Assembly (NCBI RefSeq): GCF_051903065.1 | Contig: NZ_CP178438.1 | Direction: 5' to 3' (one strand) | DNA from: Escherichia coli | Lineage (GTDB): Bacteria; Pseudomonadota; Gammaproteobacteria; Enterobacterales; Enterobacteriaceae | Length of the DNA: 64,000 bases | Shown: piece after piece, positions 14,983 through 55,584 of the stretch | How the letters are laid out: each line of letters begins with the position of its first letter | Numbering within the stretch: the stretch's first letter is position 1 | Translations under genes and position numbers: made by a program | The notes under the pieces: model-generated | What the model was told of the DNA's origin: nothing | Seen by the model: only the letters and a program-made list of their open reading frames with translations | Database searches by the model: none

Positions 14983-15417
14983 ATGGCTTATAAACACATT
15001 CTCATCGCGGTCGATCTCTCCCCGGAAAGCAAAGTTCTGGTAGAGAAAGCAGTCTCTATGGCTCGCCCATACAATGCGAAAGTTTCTCTGATCCACGTAG
15101 ATGTAAACTACTCTGACCTATATACCGGGCTTATTGATGTGAATCTTGGTGATATGCAGAAACGCATCTCTGAAGAGACACATCATGCGCTGACCGAGCT
15201 TTCCACTAATGCAGGCTACCCAATCACTGAAACCCTGAGCGGCAGCGGCGACCTGGGCCAGGTTCTGGTCGATGCAATCAAGAAATACGATATGGATCTG
15301 GTGGTTTGTGGTCACCACCAGGACTTCTGGAGCAAACTGATGTCTTCCGCACGTCAGCTGATCAACACCGTTCACGTTGATATGCTGATTGTTCCGCTGC
15401 GCGACGAAGAAGAATAA
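14983..15417 (+). CDS. uspA: Universal stress protein A
   Basis: 144-aa [27 protein letters not shown]... Confidence 0.9.
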
Positions 15418-15442
15418 TCTTCCCTCCACGACGTGTTCCTGA

Positions 15443-15475
15443 ACGCCCGCATATGCGGGCGTTTTGCTTTTTGGC
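15443..15475 (+). terminator. Intrinsic terminator after uspA
   Basis: aacgcccgcatatgcgggcgtt hairpin followed by ttgcttttt. Confidence 0.6.
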
Positions 15476-15494
15476 GCGCCTTGTTACCTGATTA

Positions 15495-15530
15495 GCGTAA
15501 ACGCCTTATCTGGCCTACGGTCTGCGTTCG
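15495..15530. repeat. REP-like palindromic element
   Basis: gccttatctggcctacgg motif typical of E. coli REP sequences. Confidence 0.35.
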
Positions 15531-15733
15531 CAATCAAAATCCCCAGCCAATACAATATTTAACACCATCATATTTTCCATCATTAGTGTGATCAGCTGGT
15601 TATTTTCTGTTGTAATAGTGTATTAATCTATTCACCGCATCAATATTAAGAATCTCTGACAGATGTAAACTTTTTCGCGCGTTATCCCTTACGCGTTCAT
15701 ACTTTTCAGGATGGTATTGGAAGGTTAATAAAT

Positions 15734-22660: not shown

Positions 22661-22734
22661 CCGTTTTCTCCATGCGATGGAGTGAGAATGCATCCGCTTA
22701 CTCATCCACTGCCTGTCACGGTGCATGTCTCATT

Positions 22735-22767
22735 GTTAGATGACGACTATCTCACTCCGGCCAGAGC
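22735..22767 (+). repeat. agr-type direct repeat copy 1, lying inside the inferred dinQ 5' leader (possible agrA region)
   Basis: ttagatgacgactatctcactccggccagagc; second copy exactly 200 bp downstream. Confidence 0.5.
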
Positions 22768-22853
22768 ATCAGTTAACGGCACCACCCGTACTTCTGACCA
22801 GGACTTTGAAAGCGTTTATGCGCATTGCCAGAGTGAAAATGCCTCAGAGCTAA

Positions 22854-22871
22854 CTGGATAATCATACAGTA
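22854..22871 (-). promoter_or_regulatory. LexA (SOS) box candidate for the dinQ promoter
   Basis: Reverse strand reads TACTGTATGATTATCCAG, about 15 of 18 matches to TACTGTATATATATACAG. Confidence 0.4.
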
Positions 22872-22929
22872 CATGCAGGTTATAAAACCAGCACGTCCTT
22901 GCAATAGTTTCAGTATGGTATTAGCATTG

Positions 22930-23018
22930 ATGCGTTAGATGATGGCTATCTCACTCCAGCCAGAGCCACCAACTCAGGGCTGGAAAGTAAAAAACCGACG
23001 CAAAGTCGGTTTTTTTAC
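22930..23018 (+). ncRNA. agrB: AgrB-like antisense small RNA candidate ending at an intrinsic terminator
   Basis: Second repeat copy (ttagatgatggctatctcactccagccagagcc) followed by ccgacgcaaagtcgg hairpin and T-run; 5' end estimated only. Confidence 0.4.
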
Positions 23019-24878: not shown

Positions 24879-25304
24879 ATGAGCAACATTACCATTTATC
24901 ACAACCCGGCCTGCGGTACGTCGCGTAATACGCTGGAGATGATCCGCAACAGCGGCACAGAACCGACCATTATCCATTATCTGGAAACTCCGCCAACGCG
25001 CGATGAACTGGTCAAACTCATTGCCGATATGGGGATTTCCGTACGCGCGCTGCTGCGTAAAAACGTCGAGCCGTATGAGGAGCTGGGCCTTGCGGAAGAT
25101 AAATATACTGACGATCGGTTAATCGACTTTATGCTTCAGCACCCGATTCTGATTAATCGCCCGATTGTGGTGACGACGCTGGGAACTCGTCTGTGCCGCC
25201 CTTCAGAAGTCGTGCTGGAAATTCTGCCAGATGCGCAAAAAGGCGCATTCTCCAAGGAAGATGGCGAGAAAGTGGTTGATGAAGCGGGTAATCGCCTGAA
25301 ATAA
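24879..25304 (+). CDS. arsC: Arsenate reductase ArsC (glutaredoxin-coupled)
   Basis: 141-aa ORF MSNITIYHNPACGTSRNTL with catalytic Cys12 context. Confidence 0.9.
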   Translation: MSNITIYHNPACGTSRNTLEMIRNSGTEPTIIHYLETPPTRDELVKLIADMGISVRALLRKNVEPYEELGLAEDKYTDDRLIDFMLQHPILINRPIVVTTLGTRLCRPSEVVLEILPDAQKGAFSKEDGEKVVDEAGNRLK

Positions 25305-25349
25305 AGCGGCTATATCCCCCCCACAGGTTGTTAGAAAAGTGCGCTTTAT

Positions 25350-25460
25350 TTATGTCGGATGCGACGCTGGCGCGTCTTATCCGACCTACAAAGTTATGAA
25401 AATTCGATGAATAGTATGTTATTTGTAGGCCTGACAGGCGTAGCGCATCAGGCGATTTTG
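25350..25460. repeat. Pair of REP elements downstream of arsC
   Basis: tgtcggatgcgacgctggcgcgtcttatccgacctac and tgtaggcctgacaggcgtagcgcatcaggc. Confidence 0.5.
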
Positions 25461-25930
25461 CTATTTACACATTACTCCCTGCGTGAGATTCCAATTATCG
25501 CGTCCAGCATGGTGTATCAGTGAGCTGCTTAGTTATCCGCGATACAGTGCAGCAGTTTAAAGACGTACTGGATTATGATTTATCAGTGCTTTACACAACA
25601 AATTATTCAATAATTATAAGATACCTTAACCCATTTTATTATTACACATCTAAAACATCACAAAAATATCATTTCACACACTATCGGAGAACATCATAAC
25701 TTTTTAAAATGAGCGCTTTTTGATAGTTGTTAACGTTTTCTTTTACGATACTATCAATGCCCTTTTTTATACACAAATATTACCGGGTGGAGATAAAAGG
25801 GAAGTCAAAGGTAATTATATCAGGAAGATATGACGCATGATATTTATTGTGCGTAGAAGAAAATCCATTCCTGCTTTAATTATCCAATTTAAAAATCTTA
25901 GCATAAAACAGATAATGAATAAGGAATGTT

Positions 25931-27154
25931 ATGTCAATTGACTTTACCCCAGGTATGATAAATACATATCACGGCGATATTTATAACCGCACAACAGATA
26001 CCGACAATGTTAAAACACCAGACACACCGATGTGGCCTTGTGATAATCGGGAAGAACAACAACCCATTAATTCCACATTCTCTGGAGAAGGATACAACCC
26101 TGAACAATATGATTTAGCGCGGCAACACCTCCCACAAATTTATGCGTGCCGCACGAACACCAAATATACAGATGCAGACTACTCAAAAGTTGTGGCTCAA
26201 CTTGTAAGTCTTATTACTAACATTGAATCGATAAGTTCGACACCACTTACGCGGCAGGCACAGGAAATACTTAATCAAATTAATAACATTAGATACGAAA
26301 AGAACAAAAGTGCTGAATGTCGAATCATTGTTGTCGCTAATCCTAAACCCGACAAGGCAATCATAACTAAAATTAGCGTAGAAGAGGGAATACCAGTAAG
26401 ATTCAGTGTCCAAACCATGTTTTCAGATACTAATTTTATTGCTGAACAACGAGCTGACTTACCGACTAATATAAAAGATATTCAAAGCCTGTATCAAAAA
26501 ATGACGAAGTTATATATTGAGCACAGTGAAAATAAAAACAGGATGAAAGTCTTTGCCGGAACCAACTTTATTGATTTCAATATGACAGGACAGAACCTGT
26601 CCGGGTTCGTTCTAACCTTGTCAAGGTTTTATTTCGAAGATCTACTTAATATAAATTTCACTGACGCAAATTTAGGTGACACTATTTTTTCACATAAAGA
26701 ACACCCTACCCCAAAATTATATAAAGACGAACAATATCTTGACAAACAAATCGAAGGTTTATTTTCAACATTATTAACCATTAATGACAACTTTTTACGA
26801 GCAAAAGCGGAAATTGCTTCGACAATAATTAAATTTTTAGAGGCCAGGATAACCAATCTTTCATACAACGACATATTAAAATATCAGCAAGAATTCCAAA
26901 AACAATGTTATAAGCAAGTTAAAGCCTTTACGACACTCTCCCGATACAATAAAATTCAAACATGGGCAGAAATGTCTGAATATCAATTCGAAGTATTTCA
27001 ATACGAGACGCTTAACCCAAAAAAAATGTCACGCACGCCTTATTTAAAGAGGCCACTTCCTGATGAAAAAGATATAAATTATGGGGTGGAAATAGAAATA
27101 CCGTCTGGTAAAAGAATTCGCTTATCAAATCATTATCAGAATATAATACCATAA
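25931..27154 (+). CDS. yhiS: Uncharacterised protein YhiS, intact; AT-rich with a pentapeptide-repeat-like middle segment
   Basis: 407-aa uninterrupted ORF; segment [46 protein letters not shown]. Confidence 0.65.
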
Positions 27155-28710: not shown

Positions 28711-29739
28711 TTATGCAGCAACGCCTTCCGGTATCAGCGAAGCAATTTGCTTACGCCATTGCGCTTGCTCCTGTTCGCCTTCTGTACGTTGACCATAAAG
28801 TTGCGCTATCTGCGTACCATCATGGGCAAACAATTCCAGACTGGTTACGTAGCCATCGCTGGTCGGTTTACGGGTAACCCAGGCTTCAGCAATGCTCTCT
28901 TCTAATAGATGAAGAGTAAACGTCGGGTTGAAAATATTCAGCCAACCTTTCATTGGCACCACTTTTTCTACCACACCGGTGAAAATCTGTACGCAGCCAC
29001 GGTTGCCAACAAACACCATGATTTCATTACCATCCTGCTGTGCAGATTCAAGAATTTGCGCCAACGCACTGTTGGATACTTTGCAGGCCAAATCGTCCGC
29101 CACCAGATTGAACGCCTGTTGGCGCGTCAGGTTGTGGCGCTTGAGCAACGTAAAAAACTGATGAACGTCGGTCATCGCCCGCCACTCTTGCTCGACCACA
29201 GTGGCATCGGCTCGCGTTTGAACAACTGGCGCATCAACGGCTTTTAACTCAAGCGGCGTATTCTCATCGGTGATAAACCGTGCCAGAAGCTCACTCCATG
29301 CCGCCATATCGGTATTGTCGGTGGCATAAACTTTTAGTAATGCATCGCCCTGATGATCAAAGAACTGAATACTTTGGCGTTCGCCACGAGCCGTGTTTTC
29401 TTTGATGTGGAAAACACTGGCCCATTGATTGAGAAACAGACGTAAATCCAGCGCGCGTGGATTGAGGATCAATCCGGCATGTCCGTTCAAATGCTGGTTT
29501 GTGAACGTACCAACTTGCTCATGGACTGCATATTCATTACGGCAAATACATTTGGTCTCGCCAACACTTTCGAGCGCCGCCAGAATTTCACGGATATCGC
29601 CGCGCATCCGCCACGCATCGTGCGTGACGCGTGCAAATGCCAGTTCTGCTTCTCTAATATTCATTAACCCTGCGATGTCACGCGCGTACTTTCCGGGTCT
29701 TTGTTCTTTTAACTCAAGCCAGCGTGTGTAGTGGTTCAT
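28711..29739 (-). CDS. chuS: Haem-degrading/haem oxygenase-like protein ChuS
   Basis: 342-aa ORF next to chuA with a ChuS/HemS-like two-domain layout. Confidence 0.85.
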   Translation of the reverse strand: MNHYTRWLELKEQRPGKYARDIAGLMNIREAELAFARVTHDAWRMRGDIREILAALESVGETKCICRNEYAVHEQVGTFTNQHLNGHAGLILNPRALDLRLFLNQWASVFHIKENTARGERQSIQFFDHQGDALLKVYATDNTDMAAWSELLARFITDENTPLELKAVDAPVVQTRADATVVEQEWRAMTDVHQFFTLLKRHNLTRQQAFNLVADDLACKVSNSALAQILESAQQDGNEIMVFVGNRGCVQIFTGVVEKVVPMKGWLNIFNPTFTLHLLEESIAEAWVTRKPTSDGYVTSLELFAHDGTQIAQLYGQRTEGEQEQAQWRKQIASLIPEGVAA

Positions 29740-29787
29740 TGTCTCTCTTCCTTCCAGATAAATGCCCCGAAATATCGGGGCAGATGA

Positions 29788-31770
29788 TTACCATTGATAA
29801 CTCACGAAAATTTTTCCGTTACGACCATCCTGTGGGATGCCTTGCGGCGACCAGTACTCTTTGTCGAAAGCGTTACCCAACACCAAAGTAGTGGTCATAC
29901 CTTTGAGCGCCTGTTGTCCTTGATAACTGACGTAGAAATCATTCACGCCATAGCCTGGTTGTTTGCTGTAACTGCTGCTGATATGTGTTGAGCGATCGGC
30001 AAACGTACCAACCCACCCAACAGAGAAGCCACTGTGAGCGATCGGAATATTCAGAGTGCTGGTAACGGTATCCGGGTTAATGCTGGAGATGTATTCGCCG
30101 GTATCGGTGTCTTTGCCGCGGGTACGGTTATAGGCCACATCAAGGCTAAACAGATCAGAGGTATATTTCGTCATCACATCCCAGCCCCAGATTTTGGCGT
30201 TCGGGACGTTATACGACATAGTCGTCGCCGCCGCGAAATCGACGGTCGTGGAGATGTAATCCTTCGCTTTGGTATCAAAGTAGCTGGCTTTAAATTCCAG
30301 AGCATCATTGGACAACATCAGGTCATCAAAACGCAGCCCAAAACCGTACTCCTGAGTTTCGTTAGTTTCCGGACGTAAGTTCGGGTTTGGCACCCAATAG
30401 TTGGTATAGAAGCGACCAATCGAGAAGTGCTTAGAATCGTTATACATTTCGCCCATCGTCGGGGCGCGGAATGCCTGGGCATATGAGCCAAATAACATCA
30501 GCCAGTTAGTCGGATTGATAGTCATCCCCGCACGAGATGACCATTTGTCGGCATCAACATCTTTGTAACCGTCACTGCTACCGCGATAACTGTCATAGCG
30601 GGTTCCGCCAAGCAGGGTAATCGGCAGATCGCGTAAGGTGATCTCATCCTGTAGCCAGCCGGAGCTAAAATCGATTTTTGCTTGCGGGAAGCCCGTCGTC
30701 GCGCCGCCCGGATGTTGTTCCTGACGATAATACTCACCGCCATATGTCAGTAAGTGAGAAGCGAAACTGTCGGCAAAGAGAGTGGAACGGTTCTCCAGCC
30801 TGGCTCCTTTTGTTATCTGTTCACGATACTCGCCGGAACTCCCCGTGTTTTGCGCATTAATACGGACTTCCGACCAATAAATTTTTGCATCTGCATTTAA
30901 CCAGTCGTTGCCCTGCGGGGCGAGTTTATAAGAAAGCTGCGCATCGCGTTGAATTGTTGAACGATCAACCATCGGGTTGCTGCTTTCAGAAGCCTCAACG
31001 GTCTGCGGATTTTTTGGTTCACGCGCGTCGTTGTTGTAGTAACGCACTAAACCGCTCAGAGACTGGGCTGAATCAATTTGCCAGGTCCCTTTCGCCAGCA
31101 TGTTATTAATGGACTCGTCATTCGGCGCGGTTTCACCATTGCTCTGGCGTAAATCACCCCGATCGCGACTGGACCAGGCCACAATACCATCCAGATTTTC
31201 AGTTCGCCCAAACGCGCTCGCGCCTAATCCCAGGCTATGGTCCCCCGTGCCGCCAGTACCAAAGACACGAAAACCACTGCTTTGTCCTTCCTGCAATAAA
31301 TCTTTTGCATCGACCGTATCGTAGGAGATCACTCCACCCAGCGCGCCACTGCCATACAGTAATGCTGAAGGTCCGCGAACAATCTCAACACGCTTGATCA
31401 GCGCCGGATCGAGAAAAGTGCCATTCAGGTGTCCGGTATCCGTTCCCTGGCGAACACCATCGATAAGAACCAGCACGCCGCGATGATCATAGCCACGCAT
31501 ATTTACATCCTGACCGTTGGTTCGTCCGGTACCATCCAGAGTCATTCCAGGAACATGACGCAGCAGATCGGTGGCTGAAGTAGCCGTTTGATTTTCAGGA
31601 GCGGAAGTGTCGATGACGCTGACCATCATAGGCGCTTCGAAGGAACTACGGGCATTCCCCGTTGCCGTAACGGTCATGGTTTCAGTAGCAAAAGCAAACG
31701 TTGGCAAGGTGGCAGAAACAGCCAAGGCCAATAAACTCAAACGCAACGAGGTAAATTGCGGACGTGACAT
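29788..31770 (-). CDS. chuA: TonB-dependent outer membrane haem/haemoglobin receptor ChuA
   Basis: 660-aa ORF with signal peptide, TonB-box-like ETMTVTA, and terminal aromatic residue of a beta-barrel. Confidence 0.9.
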   Translation of the reverse strand: MSRPQFTSLRLSLLALAVSATLPTFAFATETMTVTATGNARSSFEAPMMVSVIDTSAPENQTATSATDLLRHVPGMTLDGTGRTNGQDVNMRGYDHRGVLVLIDGVRQGTDTGHLNGTFLDPALIKRVEIVRGPSALLYGSGALGGVISYDTVDAKDLLQEGQSSGFRVFGTGGTGDHSLGLGASAFGRTENLDGIVAWSSRDRGDLRQSNGETAPNDESINNMLAKGTWQIDSAQSLSGLVRYYNNDAREPKNPQTVEASESSNPMVDRSTIQRDAQLSYKLAPQGNDWLNADAKIYWSEVRINAQNTGSSGEYREQITKGARLENRSTLFADSFASHLLTYGGEYYRQEQHPGGATTGFPQAKIDFSSGWLQDEITLRDLPITLLGGTRYDSYRGSSDGYKDVDADKWSSRAGMTINPTNWLMLFGSYAQAFRAPTMGEMYNDSKHFSIGRFYTNYWVPNPNLRPETNETQEYGFGLRFDDLMLSNDALEFKASYFDTKAKDYISTTVDFAAATTMSYNVPNAKIWGWDVMTKYTSDLFSLDVAYNRTRGKDTDTGEYISSINPDTVTSTLNIPIAHSGFSVGWVGTFADRSTHISSSYSKQPGYGVNDFYVSYQGQQALKGMTTTLVLGNAFDKEYWSPQGIPQDGRNGKIFVSYQW

Positions 31771-31775
31771 AGCGA

Positions 31776-31791
31776 TTCTCCATGAGGAAAA
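31776..31791 (-). promoter_or_regulatory. FourU-type RNA thermometer hairpin occluding the chuA Shine-Dalgarno
   Basis: mRNA sense UUUUCC-UCAU-GGAGAA immediately before the AUG; six pairs including one G-U. Confidence 0.55.
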
Positions 31792-32059
31792 TAAAAAATG
31801 CTGGCTGCCTGGGTTAATACCGGGGTGGCTGGCGAAAAATAAATTTATTTAAAATTCAGAGCGATAATATTCGCCGGGTGAGTTTACAGGCGTTTATATC
31901 CCATGAAATTGCCTGATAACTCGGCAATTACGCAAAAGCACGCCCTCTTTGTCAGGCAAAACGATATGCCCCATCAGGAGTGAAGAGAGCTGTGCGTTAT
32001 CCCTTGCAAATGCTATGGTTTTGTTATCCATATGGTCGTGTTTTGTTAAATGCAAACGT

Positions 32060-32078
32060 GATAATGAGAATTATTATC
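32060..32078. promoter_or_regulatory. Fur box, likely the chuA promoter operator
   Basis: gataatgagaattattatc, about 16 of 19 matches to GATAATGATAATCATTATC. Confidence 0.6.
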
Positions 32079-32410
32079 GATCAATTTTTTATGATCAAGT
32101 TTTTTTTTAACCACCATTAACACAATAAACAGGGGGTTATGAAACCTATCCTGCGCCCTGTAAACCACCTTGTTTTTATGGTTATCCCCCCATGCCTCAT
32201 CACTAAATTTTGTCGTTAACAGTGATAATTTTTTCTTCTCTTTGCTCTGCAAGCCTCGATATCTCTGGGTTCTCAGCTTTTTCCCGCGATGAAATTTAGT
32301 CGGTAACAAGAACGTTAGCTGACGAAGCATCTTGATAAAAATCAAAAATAAATACGCTTGTAACGCCTTGCGTATTGAATCGACGGTTGTATTTCATATA
32401 TAACTCAAAT

Positions 32411-32429
32411 GATAATCATGATCATTCTC
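32411..32429. promoter_or_regulatory. Fur box upstream of chuT
   Basis: gataatcatgatcattctc, strong match to the Fur consensus, about 25 bp upstream of ATG 32453. Confidence 0.6.
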
Positions 32430-32452
32430 AATTTGATAAGAGTTCTCATATT

Positions 32453-54527: not shown

Positions 54528-55584
54528 GGCTTTGTTGAATAAATCAGATTTCGGGTAAGTCTCCCCCGTAGCGGGTTGTGTTTTCAGGCAATACGCACGC
54601 TTTCAGGCATACCTGCTTTCGTCATTTTGTTCAGCGCTCGTACCAGGGCCATAGCCTCTGCAACCTGACCATCGTAGTCACGCAGTGTCAGTGAACCCCC
54701 GAACAGCTGTTTTACCCGGTACATCGCCGTTTCCGCTATCGAGCGACGGTTGTAATCTGTTGTCCATTTCCACCGCGCATTACTCCCGGTCATTCGCTGA
54801 TTAGCCACTGCACGGTTACGGTCTGCATATTCACCGGGCCAGTAACCCGCACCTTTTCGGGGAGGGATAAGCGCGCTGATTTTCTTACGCCGCAGTTCAT
54901 CGTGACATAGCCGGGTATCGTAAGCGCCATCGGCGGCGGCTGACCTGATTTTCCGGTGGGTTTGCCGGATTAACCCGGGGAAGGCCTCTGAGTCCGTAAC
55001 GTTGTTCAGCGACAGGTCAGCGCAGATGATTTCATGTGTTTTACTGTCAACGGCGAGATGCAGCTTACGCCAGATACGGCGGCGTTCCTGGCCATGCTTT
55101 TTGACTTTCCACTCGCCTTCACCGAAGACCTTCAGCCCGGTGGAATCAATTACCAGGTGTGCGATTTCACCCCGGGTGGGCGTTTTGAAACTGACATTAA
55201 CCGACTTTGCCCGCCTGCTGACACAGCTGTAATCCGGGCAGCGTAGCGGAACGTTCATCAGAGAAAAAATGGAATCAATAAAGCCCTGCGCAGCGCGCAG
55301 GGTCAGCCTGAATACGCGTTTAATGACCAGCACAGTCGTGATGGCAAGGTCAGAATAGCGCTGAGGTCTGCCTCGTGAAGAAGGTGTTGCTGACTCATAC
55401 CAGGCCTGAATAGCTTCATCATCCAGCCAGAAAGTTATGGAGCCACGGTTGATGAGGGCTTTATTGTAGGTGGGCCAGTTGGTGATTTTGAACTTTTGCT
55501 TTGCCACGGAACGGTCTGCGTTGTCGGGAAGATACGTGATCTGATCCTTCAACTCAGCAAAAGTTCGATTTATTCAACAAAGCC
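54528..55584 (-). mobile_element. IS903-type insertion sequence (IS5 family), 1057 bp with perfect 18-bp terminal inverted repeats
   Basis: GGCTTTGTTGAATAAATC at 54528-54545 and its reverse complement at 55567-55584; internal transposase ORF. Confidence 0.9.
54584..55552 (-). CDS. IS903-family transposase
   Basis: 322-aa ORF matching the IS903/IS102 transposase as I remember it (…AKQKFKITNW.TYNKALINRGS.TFWLDDEAIQAWYE...). Confidence 0.85.
   Translation of the reverse strand: MKDQITYLPDNADRSVAKQKFKITNWPTYNKALINRGSITFWLDDEAIQAWYESATPSSRGRPQRYSDLAITTVLVIKRVFRLTLRAAQGFIDSIFSLMNVPLRCPDYSCVSRRAKSVNVSFKTPTRGEIAHLVIDSTGLKVFGEGEWKVKKHGQERRRIWRKLHLAVDSKTHEIICADLSLNNVTDSEAFPGLIRQTHRKIRSAAADGAYDTRLCHDELRRKKISALIPPRKGAGYWPGEYADRNRAVANQRMTGSNARWKWTTDYNRRSIAETAMYRVKQLFGGSLTLRDYDGQVAEAMALVRALNKMTKAGMPESVRIA

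Follow-up and report, generated by a model that had tools for sequence, protein, structure and literature searches.

The window analysed here, 64,000 nucleotides of a single strand, is by its sequence a stretch of the E. coli chromosome from uspA to yhjG. Two pieces of it, 1.0 kb around arsC and 2.5 kb around yhjE, were compared with strain 23CRST027 and both proved 100% identical, with O145:H28 strains close. The annotation of 23CRST027, whose coordinates are the same as those of the window, confirmed the gene names and places uspA at 14983-15417, arsC at 24879-25304, yhjD at 56888-57901 and yhjE at 58313-59635; yhjG lies on the minus strand (59817-61892, stop codon 59817-59819). Lists of open reading frames agree with this annotation, including the end of yhjE at 59635, except that the yhjG frame is longer, with an ATG start further upstream. 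Repeat features are recorded in the MG1655 RefSeq feature tables neither at arsC nor even around rayT, and a scan of the window at Rfam gathering thresholds returned only GadY, AgrB, ES205 and the shuA thermometer, which is uninformative given that Rfam holds no REP family.

REP-like motifs had been predicted at four intergenic sites: after arsC, after uspA, between yhjD and yhjE, and between yhjE and yhjG. The original prediction took them for ordinary E. coli REP/BIME sequences, proposed a scan with a REP model, and named the lack of any match on such a scan as the outcome that would speak against it. The covariance model that we used describes the outer stem, rests solely on six REPs, of types Y and Z2, that flank rayT in K-12 MG1655, and is independent of the window. 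Run over the 64 kb with filters off, it returned seven REPs (E 3e-12 to 0.04) that fall at exactly the four predicted sites, their coordinates agreeing with those given or differing by a few bases; at the uspA site a REP is present as foreseen, and only its extent required correction, from 15495-15530 to the 15486-15518 found by the model. Elsewhere in the 64 kb no position scored below E 0.2, apart from an opposite-strand reading of the REP at 59711-59744, and the next independent match after the seven lay at E 1.4.

Several further measurements describe these seven sequences. The tail motif CTTATCMGRCCTAC, allowing at most two mismatches, occurs nine times in the window against 0.86 expected, a count that none of 100 shuffles reached. 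Over the seven REPs, 96.4% of outer-stem cells are paired, whereas sliding the 3′ partner by one to three columns leaves no more than 50% paired; two outer-stem pairs show compensatory changes. Six of the seven fold better than their shuffles (-10.7 to -20.8 kcal/mol, z -2.1 to -5.2), the exception being the uspA copy. The GTAG/CTAC foot is exact in five (15515-18, 25386-89, 25425-28, 57965-68 and 59711-14), and the remaining two carry inexact tails, ATAC at 57938-41 and CTGA at 59673-76. Positions of the GC/TT stem mismatch, a two-base GC-opposite-TT feature needed for RayT binding (PMC3333891), stay unpaired in the model alignments, and in the copies at 25425-53 and 15486-518 the bases are altered yet still unpaired. 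All seven REPs lie outside large coding sequences and downstream of a gene. Their sequences are also highly repeated: a 2.5-kb query containing four of them matched, per E. coli genome, a median number of 35 places, with at least 40 matches in 1,964 records. In our view these features are very probably REPs (palindromic units), a chromosomal repeat of E. coli, arranged in BIMEs.

Three REP classes, y, z1 and z2, are distinguished, and their combinations define the larger units: BIME-1, which occurs as single copies, joins z1 and y through a long conserved linker, L, in which an IHF site is frequent, and BIME-2 joins z2 and y through short linkers in tandem arrays (Ton-Hoang 2012, PMC3333891), with atypical BIMEs being chimeras of the two (PMC3333891). 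Because Y and Z2 REPs flank rayT (Nunvar 2010, PMC2817692) and the rayT flanks of MG1655 carry the long centre GCGACGCTGGCGCGTC, we assigned the long-centre form to Z2 and the short form, with its GCGCTACGC centre, to Z1. Two of the window's REPs (25354-25389 and 57965-58000) fit no textbook class cleanly, having a Z2-like centre on a Y-type stem. Whether in the window or in any of the alleles inspected, no site has more than one REP pair or a tandem array, a trait of BIME-1.

The gap between yhjE and yhjG holds a canonical BIME-1 in the order Z1-L-Y. Its short-centre Z1 REP (59648-59676, plus strand; 22.6 bits, E 1e-3; -13.2 kcal/mol, z -4.3) begins 12 nt past the yhjE stop and ends in CTGA in place of CTAC. 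It is followed by the conserved BIME-1 linker L, 34 nt long (59677-59710, minus strand), and by a Y REP (59711-59744, minus strand; 55.4 bits, E 3e-12; -19.5 kcal/mol) that is identical at 34 of 34 positions to a Y consensus (blastn-short). A flank motif on the minus strand (59745-59772), identified by alignment as homologous to 25326-25353, completes the unit and belongs to the ~141-bp segment that is absent from LF82-type strains. A 43-mer centred on the L linker recurs in a median of six places per E. coli genome. Within the linker, ATTCAATATATTG (59686-59698, minus strand) agrees at 12 of 13 positions with the IHF core consensus WATCAANNNNTTR, a resemblance that is weak alone, as the window contains 81 matches with one mismatch.

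In the arsC-yhiS gap, where the arsRBC operon ends, the region 25305-25460 contains one BIME-1-like composite of ~130 nt (25326-25453), in which a 28-nt flank motif precedes a REP and a 35-nt L-like linker then connects this REP to an inverted Z1 REP. The composite starts ~28 nt upstream of its own first REP with the left flank motif GGTTGTTAGAAAAGTGCGCTTTATTTAT (25326-25353, plus strand), which a three-way alignment finds in common with the yhjE-yhjG BIME-1; its consensus, AGATTGTTGGnAAAGTGYGCTTTRTTYATG, is conserved at these two unlinked loci. The first REP (25354-25389, plus strand; 49.2 bits, E 1e-10; -20.8 kcal/mol, z -5.2) lies 49 nt from the arsC stop and has the long, Z2-like centre GCGACGCTGGCGCGTC, a Y-type G at the class-diagnostic stem position, a C-G pair compensated to U-A, and a CTAC end. 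Next come the linker (25390-25424, plus strand), delimited by linker alignments and a scan with the IHF consensus, in which the IHF-core position has decayed to ATTCGATGAATAG (10/13), and the short-centre Z1 REP (25425-25453, minus strand; 23.6 bits, E 6e-4; -10.7 kcal/mol), which shows GTAG on the plus strand at 25425-25428. A moderately T-rich run, GATTTTGCTATTT, follows outside the coordinates of the unit. The arsC unit is thus not Z1 plus Y: its Z1 is paired with a long-centre REP having a Y-type stem. It is identical, base for base, in K-12 (MG1655). Placed in the same orientation, the arsC and yhjE-yhjG composites align over ~135 nt, including the 28-nt flank and the linker, and on the strength of this homology we treat them as two copies of one composite element. 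Long-range pairing between the flank motif and the Z1 centre, as drawn in folds of the whole unit, found no compensatory support.

The remaining two sites are less regular. The yhjD-yhjE gap contains a single Y/Z2-like pair, tail to tail, that is best filed as an atypical BIME. Its degenerate Y REP (57907-57941, plus strand; 16.6 bits, E 0.04) begins 5 nt past the yhjD stop, is mutated in its 5′ half relative to the intact K-12 copy, and ends in ATAC instead of CTAC; it folds to -12.9 kcal/mol, against -22.2 for the K-12 allele. A 23-nt linker with no strand assigned (57942-57964), unlike both the L linker and the BIME-2 linkers at rayT, leads to an inverted long-centre, Z2-like REP with a Y-type stem (57965-58000, minus strand; 41.8 bits, E 1e-8; -13.7 kcal/mol; GTAG at 57965-57968 on the plus strand). 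BIME-2 is recognised by multiple tandem copies of Y and Z2, and this gap holds one pair only. In the uspA-dtpB gap a single decayed Y-type REP (15486-15518, plus strand; 22.4 bits, E 1e-3) has two non-standard outer-stem pairs and does not fold significantly (-5.8 kcal/mol, z -1.5). Located 68 nt past the uspA stop, it comes after the intrinsic terminator of that gene (15441-15472), and on the opposite strand it is overlapped by two annotated ORFs of 17 codons each.

Comparison across 5,426 E. coli genomes revealed that the REP/BIME gaps are polymorphic, with the BIME present, absent or replaced by a BoxC-like repeat. Intergenic lengths in other strains had been proposed as a check, and gap length does differ between alleles. 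Between yhjE and yhjG it measures 181 bp in the window, K-12-like strains and ETEC6335, with BIME-1 plus a palindrome; 178 bp in two B2-like strains, which have the same content except for 3 bp deleted from the Y REP; 40 bp in 20Y000092, with the palindrome only; and 233 bp in GPEC79, with other repeat-bearing sequence in place of both BIME and palindrome. LF82 is one of 222 genomes with the BIME-less junction. What strains of this type lack is a ~141-bp segment that comprises the entire composite unit with its flanks and abuts the yhjE stop codon, which is TAA where the BIME is present and TAG where it is absent. The 233-bp allele occurs in 1,468 genomes, and its ~55-nt core (CCCCTCGCCCC...GGGAGAGGGTTAGGGTGAGGGG) recurs elsewhere as a dispersed repeat, the median being five places per genome; judged by its size and arms, we take it to be BoxC-like, BoxC being described as 56 bp long with 32 copies (PMC2267715).

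The other gaps vary in similar ways. The Y REP between yhjD and yhjE is intact in K-12, mutated in the window and shortened by a 19-bp internal deletion in three strains, and in WP5-S18 a BoxC-like sequence stands in its place. At arsC, the arrangement shared by the window and K-12 was found in ~3,175 genomes. A class represented by 88_1577 carries the BIME, with a near-canonical L linker kept, followed by a convergent gene for an ArsR/SmtB-family regulator and a permease gene; this regulator gene is 8 codons shorter at its end, and the edge of the BIME unit supplies its final two codons and stop. PCN033 has the regulator and permease genes and no BIME, with a terminator-like hairpin and T-tract in a 20-nt gap; of this hairpin the window keeps only a decayed remnant at ~25302-25324 (-3.7 kcal/mol). 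In SEV1, ISVsa5 has inserted inside the first arsC REP with a 9-bp duplication, TGCGACGCT, corresponding to 25360-25368 of the window, in line with reports that REPs serve as targets for IS elements (PMC1525189). The suggestion that these sites mark recombination hot spots is borne out by these cross-strain indels, replacement alleles and the IS insertion. Instability between strains thereby joins identity, architecture, copy number, hairpin potential and position relative to genes among the properties observed for these elements.

The yhjE-yhjG gap additionally contains a perfect palindrome at 59784-59812, 14+1+14 (AATTGCCGGATGTC-A-GACATCCGGCAATT), which folds to -18.8 kcal/mol on either strand (z -6.5) and adjoins the yhjG stop, 4 nt away. 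The original prediction had reported a perfect palindrome with 14-bp arms at the yhjG stop, without a U-tract, and indeed no terminator-like T-tract follows it on either strand (the hairpin-plus-T-tract scan gave 0 sites). The prediction had also rightly kept it apart from the REPs: with 8.4 bits and E 5 the palindrome does not pass the REP model, and it is single-copy. It also lacks their GC/TT stem mismatch. It occupies one place per genome in 3,612 of the 5,426 E. coli genomes, and among 100,044 species genomes the E. coli representative alone has an exact match. One odd further match proved to be the same locus. Classification as a dispersed repeat was considered and rejected, at one place per genome. 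Because the palindrome is kept where the BIME is absent, we favour reading it as a 3′ hairpin that the convergent genes yhjE and yhjG share, a separate, locus-specific structure that closes both of them and is not a REP.

Both of its arms, on the other hand, contain TGCCGGATG, the 9-nt head of Y REPs, so that derivation from a REP is conceivable; the palindrome would then represent a BIME that has collapsed into a "mini-REP", a pair of inverted Y-REP heads (TGCCGGATG / CATCCGGCA) whose intervening sequence has been lost. Its distance of 40 nt to a Y REP and its location in a gap where repeats come and go are consistent with such an origin, as is the restriction of exact matches to E. coli, which points to a young structure. 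These points have to be set against the missing GTAG/CTAC foot, stem mismatch and REP centre, the failure on the REP model, the single copy per genome that is unchanged where the BIME is absent, and the fact that no allele was seen with a full BIME at the palindrome's place, and on this balance we consider a REP-derived origin rather unlikely. The fuller history, equally doubtful, would have the remnant fixed as a shared, U-tract-less 3′ hairpin, with the ~140-nt BIME-1 composite and its flanks coming or going alongside it in LF82-type strains; lacking both the GTAG foot and the stem mismatch, such a remnant would no longer be recognisable by RayT. A locus-specific hairpin shared by yhjE and yhjG is the reading that we retain.

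The REPs themselves invite other explanations. Hairpins at gene 3′ ends could be intrinsic terminators or attenuators specific to each gene, with only a likeness to REPs and no place in any dispersed repeat family, and the moderately T-rich run GATTTTGCTATTT behind the arsC Z1 REP speaks for this. Yet the sequences match a model made from REPs of an unlinked locus, recur dozens of times per genome and carry the GTAG/CTAC foot and GC/TT stem mismatch of the family, and none of the REPs passes the hairpin-plus-T-tract scan on the strand of its upstream gene; we consider this explanation extremely improbable. Membership in another enterobacterial repeat family (ERIC/IRU, BoxC, RSA or a MITE) draws some colour from the BoxC-like repeats that occupy both yhj gaps in other strains, but the window's sequences have no CCCTC/GAGGG BoxC-like arms and match the REP model from end to end, which leaves it a negligible chance.

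At arsC, the gap could instead be decayed coding sequence, with the REPs forming part of gene remnants or of a 54-aa ORF at 25359-25523. The gap does hold remnants of two genes, the C-terminus of the ArsR/SmtB regulator at 25451-25516 (minus strand) and a permease fragment at 25529-25582 (plus strand), and the 88_1577 regulator has its final two codons and stop inside the BIME edge. The REPs and linker at 25354-25453, however, have no counterpart in the BIME-less PCN033 allele and align with the yhjE-yhjG BIME, and the 54-aa ORF starts inside a REP and has no annotation support, so that we give a coding origin very little credence. Identification as REP elements organised as BIMEs is the interpretation carried forward below.

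Stabilisation of mRNA, help with Rho-dependent termination, stalling of ribosomes and binding of IHF or gyrase are functions taken over from the family, and they may apply to these copies. As family members, the REPs would be non-autonomous DNA that is recognised and cut by the RayT (TnpA-REP) transposase, whose activity would spread and reshuffle them in the intergenic DNA behind genes. The GTAG foot and the stem mismatch mediate binding of RayT, which cuts at CT dinucleotides (PMC3333891); this activity would provide a mechanism for the gains, losses and rearrangements of REPs from strain to strain. Transcribed as the tail of the upstream mRNA, the REPs would form stable imperfect hairpins that could impede 3′-to-5′ exonucleases and could assist Rho-dependent termination or attenuation; stabilisation of mRNA by REPs, attenuation and IHF are summarised in PMC2267715 and PMC2817692. 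In keeping with such a role, the hairpin-plus-T-tract scan found no canonical intrinsic terminator after arsC, yhjD, yhjE or yhjG, its only passing structures being the uspA hairpin at 15441-15472 and the PCN033 arsC hairpin, and the hairpins described here are therefore the only strong 3′ structures of those four genes.

Position relative to the stop codon may matter as well. According to Liang et al. 2015, as cited in PMC12306157, REPs lying at most 15 nt from a stop codon stall terminating ribosomes and lower translation. The REPs behind yhjD (5 nt) and yhjE (12 nt) fall within this reported range, making them candidates for the stop-codon-proximal effect, whereas those behind arsC (49 nt) and uspA (68 nt) do not. 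For BIME-1 as a family, binding of IHF to the L linker is described (PMC3333891), and the linker between yhjE and yhjG, with its 12/13 match, probably binds IHF as DNA; in the arsC linker the IHF core has been lost. Gyrase prefers BIME-2, where it cuts y-type REPs more often than z2-type ones (Sutormin 2019, PMC6379681); this preference might apply, weakly, to the yhjD-yhjE pair.

Collectively, the positions of the REP/BIME elements explain the long gaps at the four sites, the differences in gap length between strains, and the missing canonical terminators at arsC, yhjD, yhjE and yhjG. They also hold warnings for gene callers, given a small ORF call over a decayed REP, a spurious 54-aa ORF that begins in a REP and, in some strains, a regulator whose stop codon comes from the edge of a BIME unit. 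Beyond good annotation, the significance is small. The class is already known, the REP/BIME family having been described decades ago and studied since the 1980s.

Among known systems, intrinsic terminators resemble both the palindrome and the REPs in being GC-rich hairpins just past stop codons, and differ in their T-tract. The closest relatives are the E. coli REP or PU sequences of classes Y, Z1 and Z2 (Higgins, Gilson, Bachellier; Ton-Hoang 2012, PMC3333891). Like these, the window's copies are imperfect palindromes of 29-36 nt with a GTAG/CTAC foot and GC/TT mismatch, extragenic, located 3′ of genes, highly repeated and matched by the model over their full length; unlike them, the long-centre REPs of the arsC and yhjD-yhjE sites have a Z2-like centre on a Y-type stem base, two tails are imperfect, and the uspA and yhjD-proximal copies are degraded in the window strain. 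BIME-1 is also called RIB/RIP or the IHF-binding BIME (reportedly Boccard & Prentki 1993 and Oppenheim 1993). The yhjE-yhjG unit agrees with it in its inverse Z1 and Y, 34-nt conserved L linker with a 12/13 match to the IHF core, single copy and place at the end of a transcription unit, and the arsC unit shares the architecture, flank motif and homologous linker, departing from it in having a long-centre REP at the Y position and an IHF core of only 10/13. For gyrase-binding BIME-2, reportedly described by Espeli & Boccard 1997, and for atypical BIMEs, the counterpart is the yhjD-yhjE pair, with Y and Z2-like REPs tail to tail across a short 23-nt linker; unlike BIME-2, it is a single pair with a linker unrelated to those at rayT and a mutated Y copy. 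In REPINs and their RAYTs, an inverted REP doublet and its spacer behave as one unit (Bertels & Rainey 2011, PMC3116915; Nunvar 2010, PMC2817692). The window, unlike those systems, carries no rayT gene; like them, it offers a composite that varies as a whole, the ~141-bp presence/absence difference between yhjE and yhjG, whether an insertion or a deletion, covering the entire unit together with its flanks.

Whole-unit RNA folds of the two BIME-1 copies, the BIME-1-like composite downstream of arsC (25326-25453) and the unit between yhjE and yhjG, predicted base-pairing between the GUGYGCU stretch of the conserved flank motif and AGCGCAU at the Z1 REP centre. This pairing joins 25339-25345 to 25441-25447 in the arsC copy and 59753-59759 to 59655-59661 in the yhjE-yhjG copy, and in these folds it would form instead of the Z1 hairpin. 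No compensatory change backs it.

The gap between arsC and yhiS is long and holds the decayed remains of two genes (25451-25582), both of which other E. coli strains possess in intact form: the final 22 codons of the gene for an ArsR/SmtB-family regulator on the minus strand (25451-25516), with an in-frame stop, and an 18-codon permease fragment on the plus strand (25529-25582). The deleted state is common to the window and K-12. Where the regulator is retained beside the arsC BIME, its C-terminus reads ...NSKIA* rather than ...NSKTHGEGATKNK*. In strain 88_1577, its final two codons and stop lie within the edge of the BIME unit (L009 1789-1800; window 25451-25456), so the element is not strictly extragenic where the two adjoin. 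In SEV1 (L010 1172-2500), the first arsC REP is interrupted by ISVsa5, an IS4-family, IS10-like element bounded on both sides by the 9-bp target duplication TGCGACGCT (window 25360-25368).

Both yhj gaps carry a different dispersed repeat in place of REPs in some strains, namely between yhjE and yhjG in GPEC79 (L007 2036-2268) and between yhjD and yhjE in WP5-S18 (L006 ~305-400). Its arms read CCCTC...GAGGG, and it looks like BoxC. The 233-bp yhjE-yhjG allele, which GPEC79 carries, occurs in 1,468 of the 5,426 E. coli genomes compared. In the uspA-dtpB gap, two mutually overlapping 17-codon ORFs are annotated on the minus strand (15484-15568); one is named YriB in K-12 records, and the other, which begins with TTG and is presumably YriA, sits for nearly its whole length on the decayed REP at 15486-15518.

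Elsewhere in the window, a HicA/HicB toxin-antitoxin pair occupies the left edge (37-668), and the interval from yhjB to rcdB contains a transposase gene of the IS903B family that is frameshifted (54584-55551). The dinQ neighbourhood (22688-23018) contains an annotated 57-codon hypothetical ORF (22688-22861) and a single AgrB-type antisense RNA match (22935-23018), whereas both agrA and agrB are annotated in MG1655. Between dctR and yhiD, a chu/shu haem-uptake locus (28711-37663) encodes chuS, chuA, shuT, hutW, hutX, a frameshifted chuY, shuU and an ATPase gene, with an Rfam shuA/chuA thermoregulator match at 31768-31799; K-12 lacks the locus at this position. PGAP labels the gene at the yhiS position of strain 23CRST027 as frameshifted (25931-27047), although the yhiS homologue in the window is an uninterrupted 407-codon ORF (25931-27154); the two sequences are identical over the stretch compared there, 25000-26000. 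In K-12, by contrast, yhiS is split by IS5.
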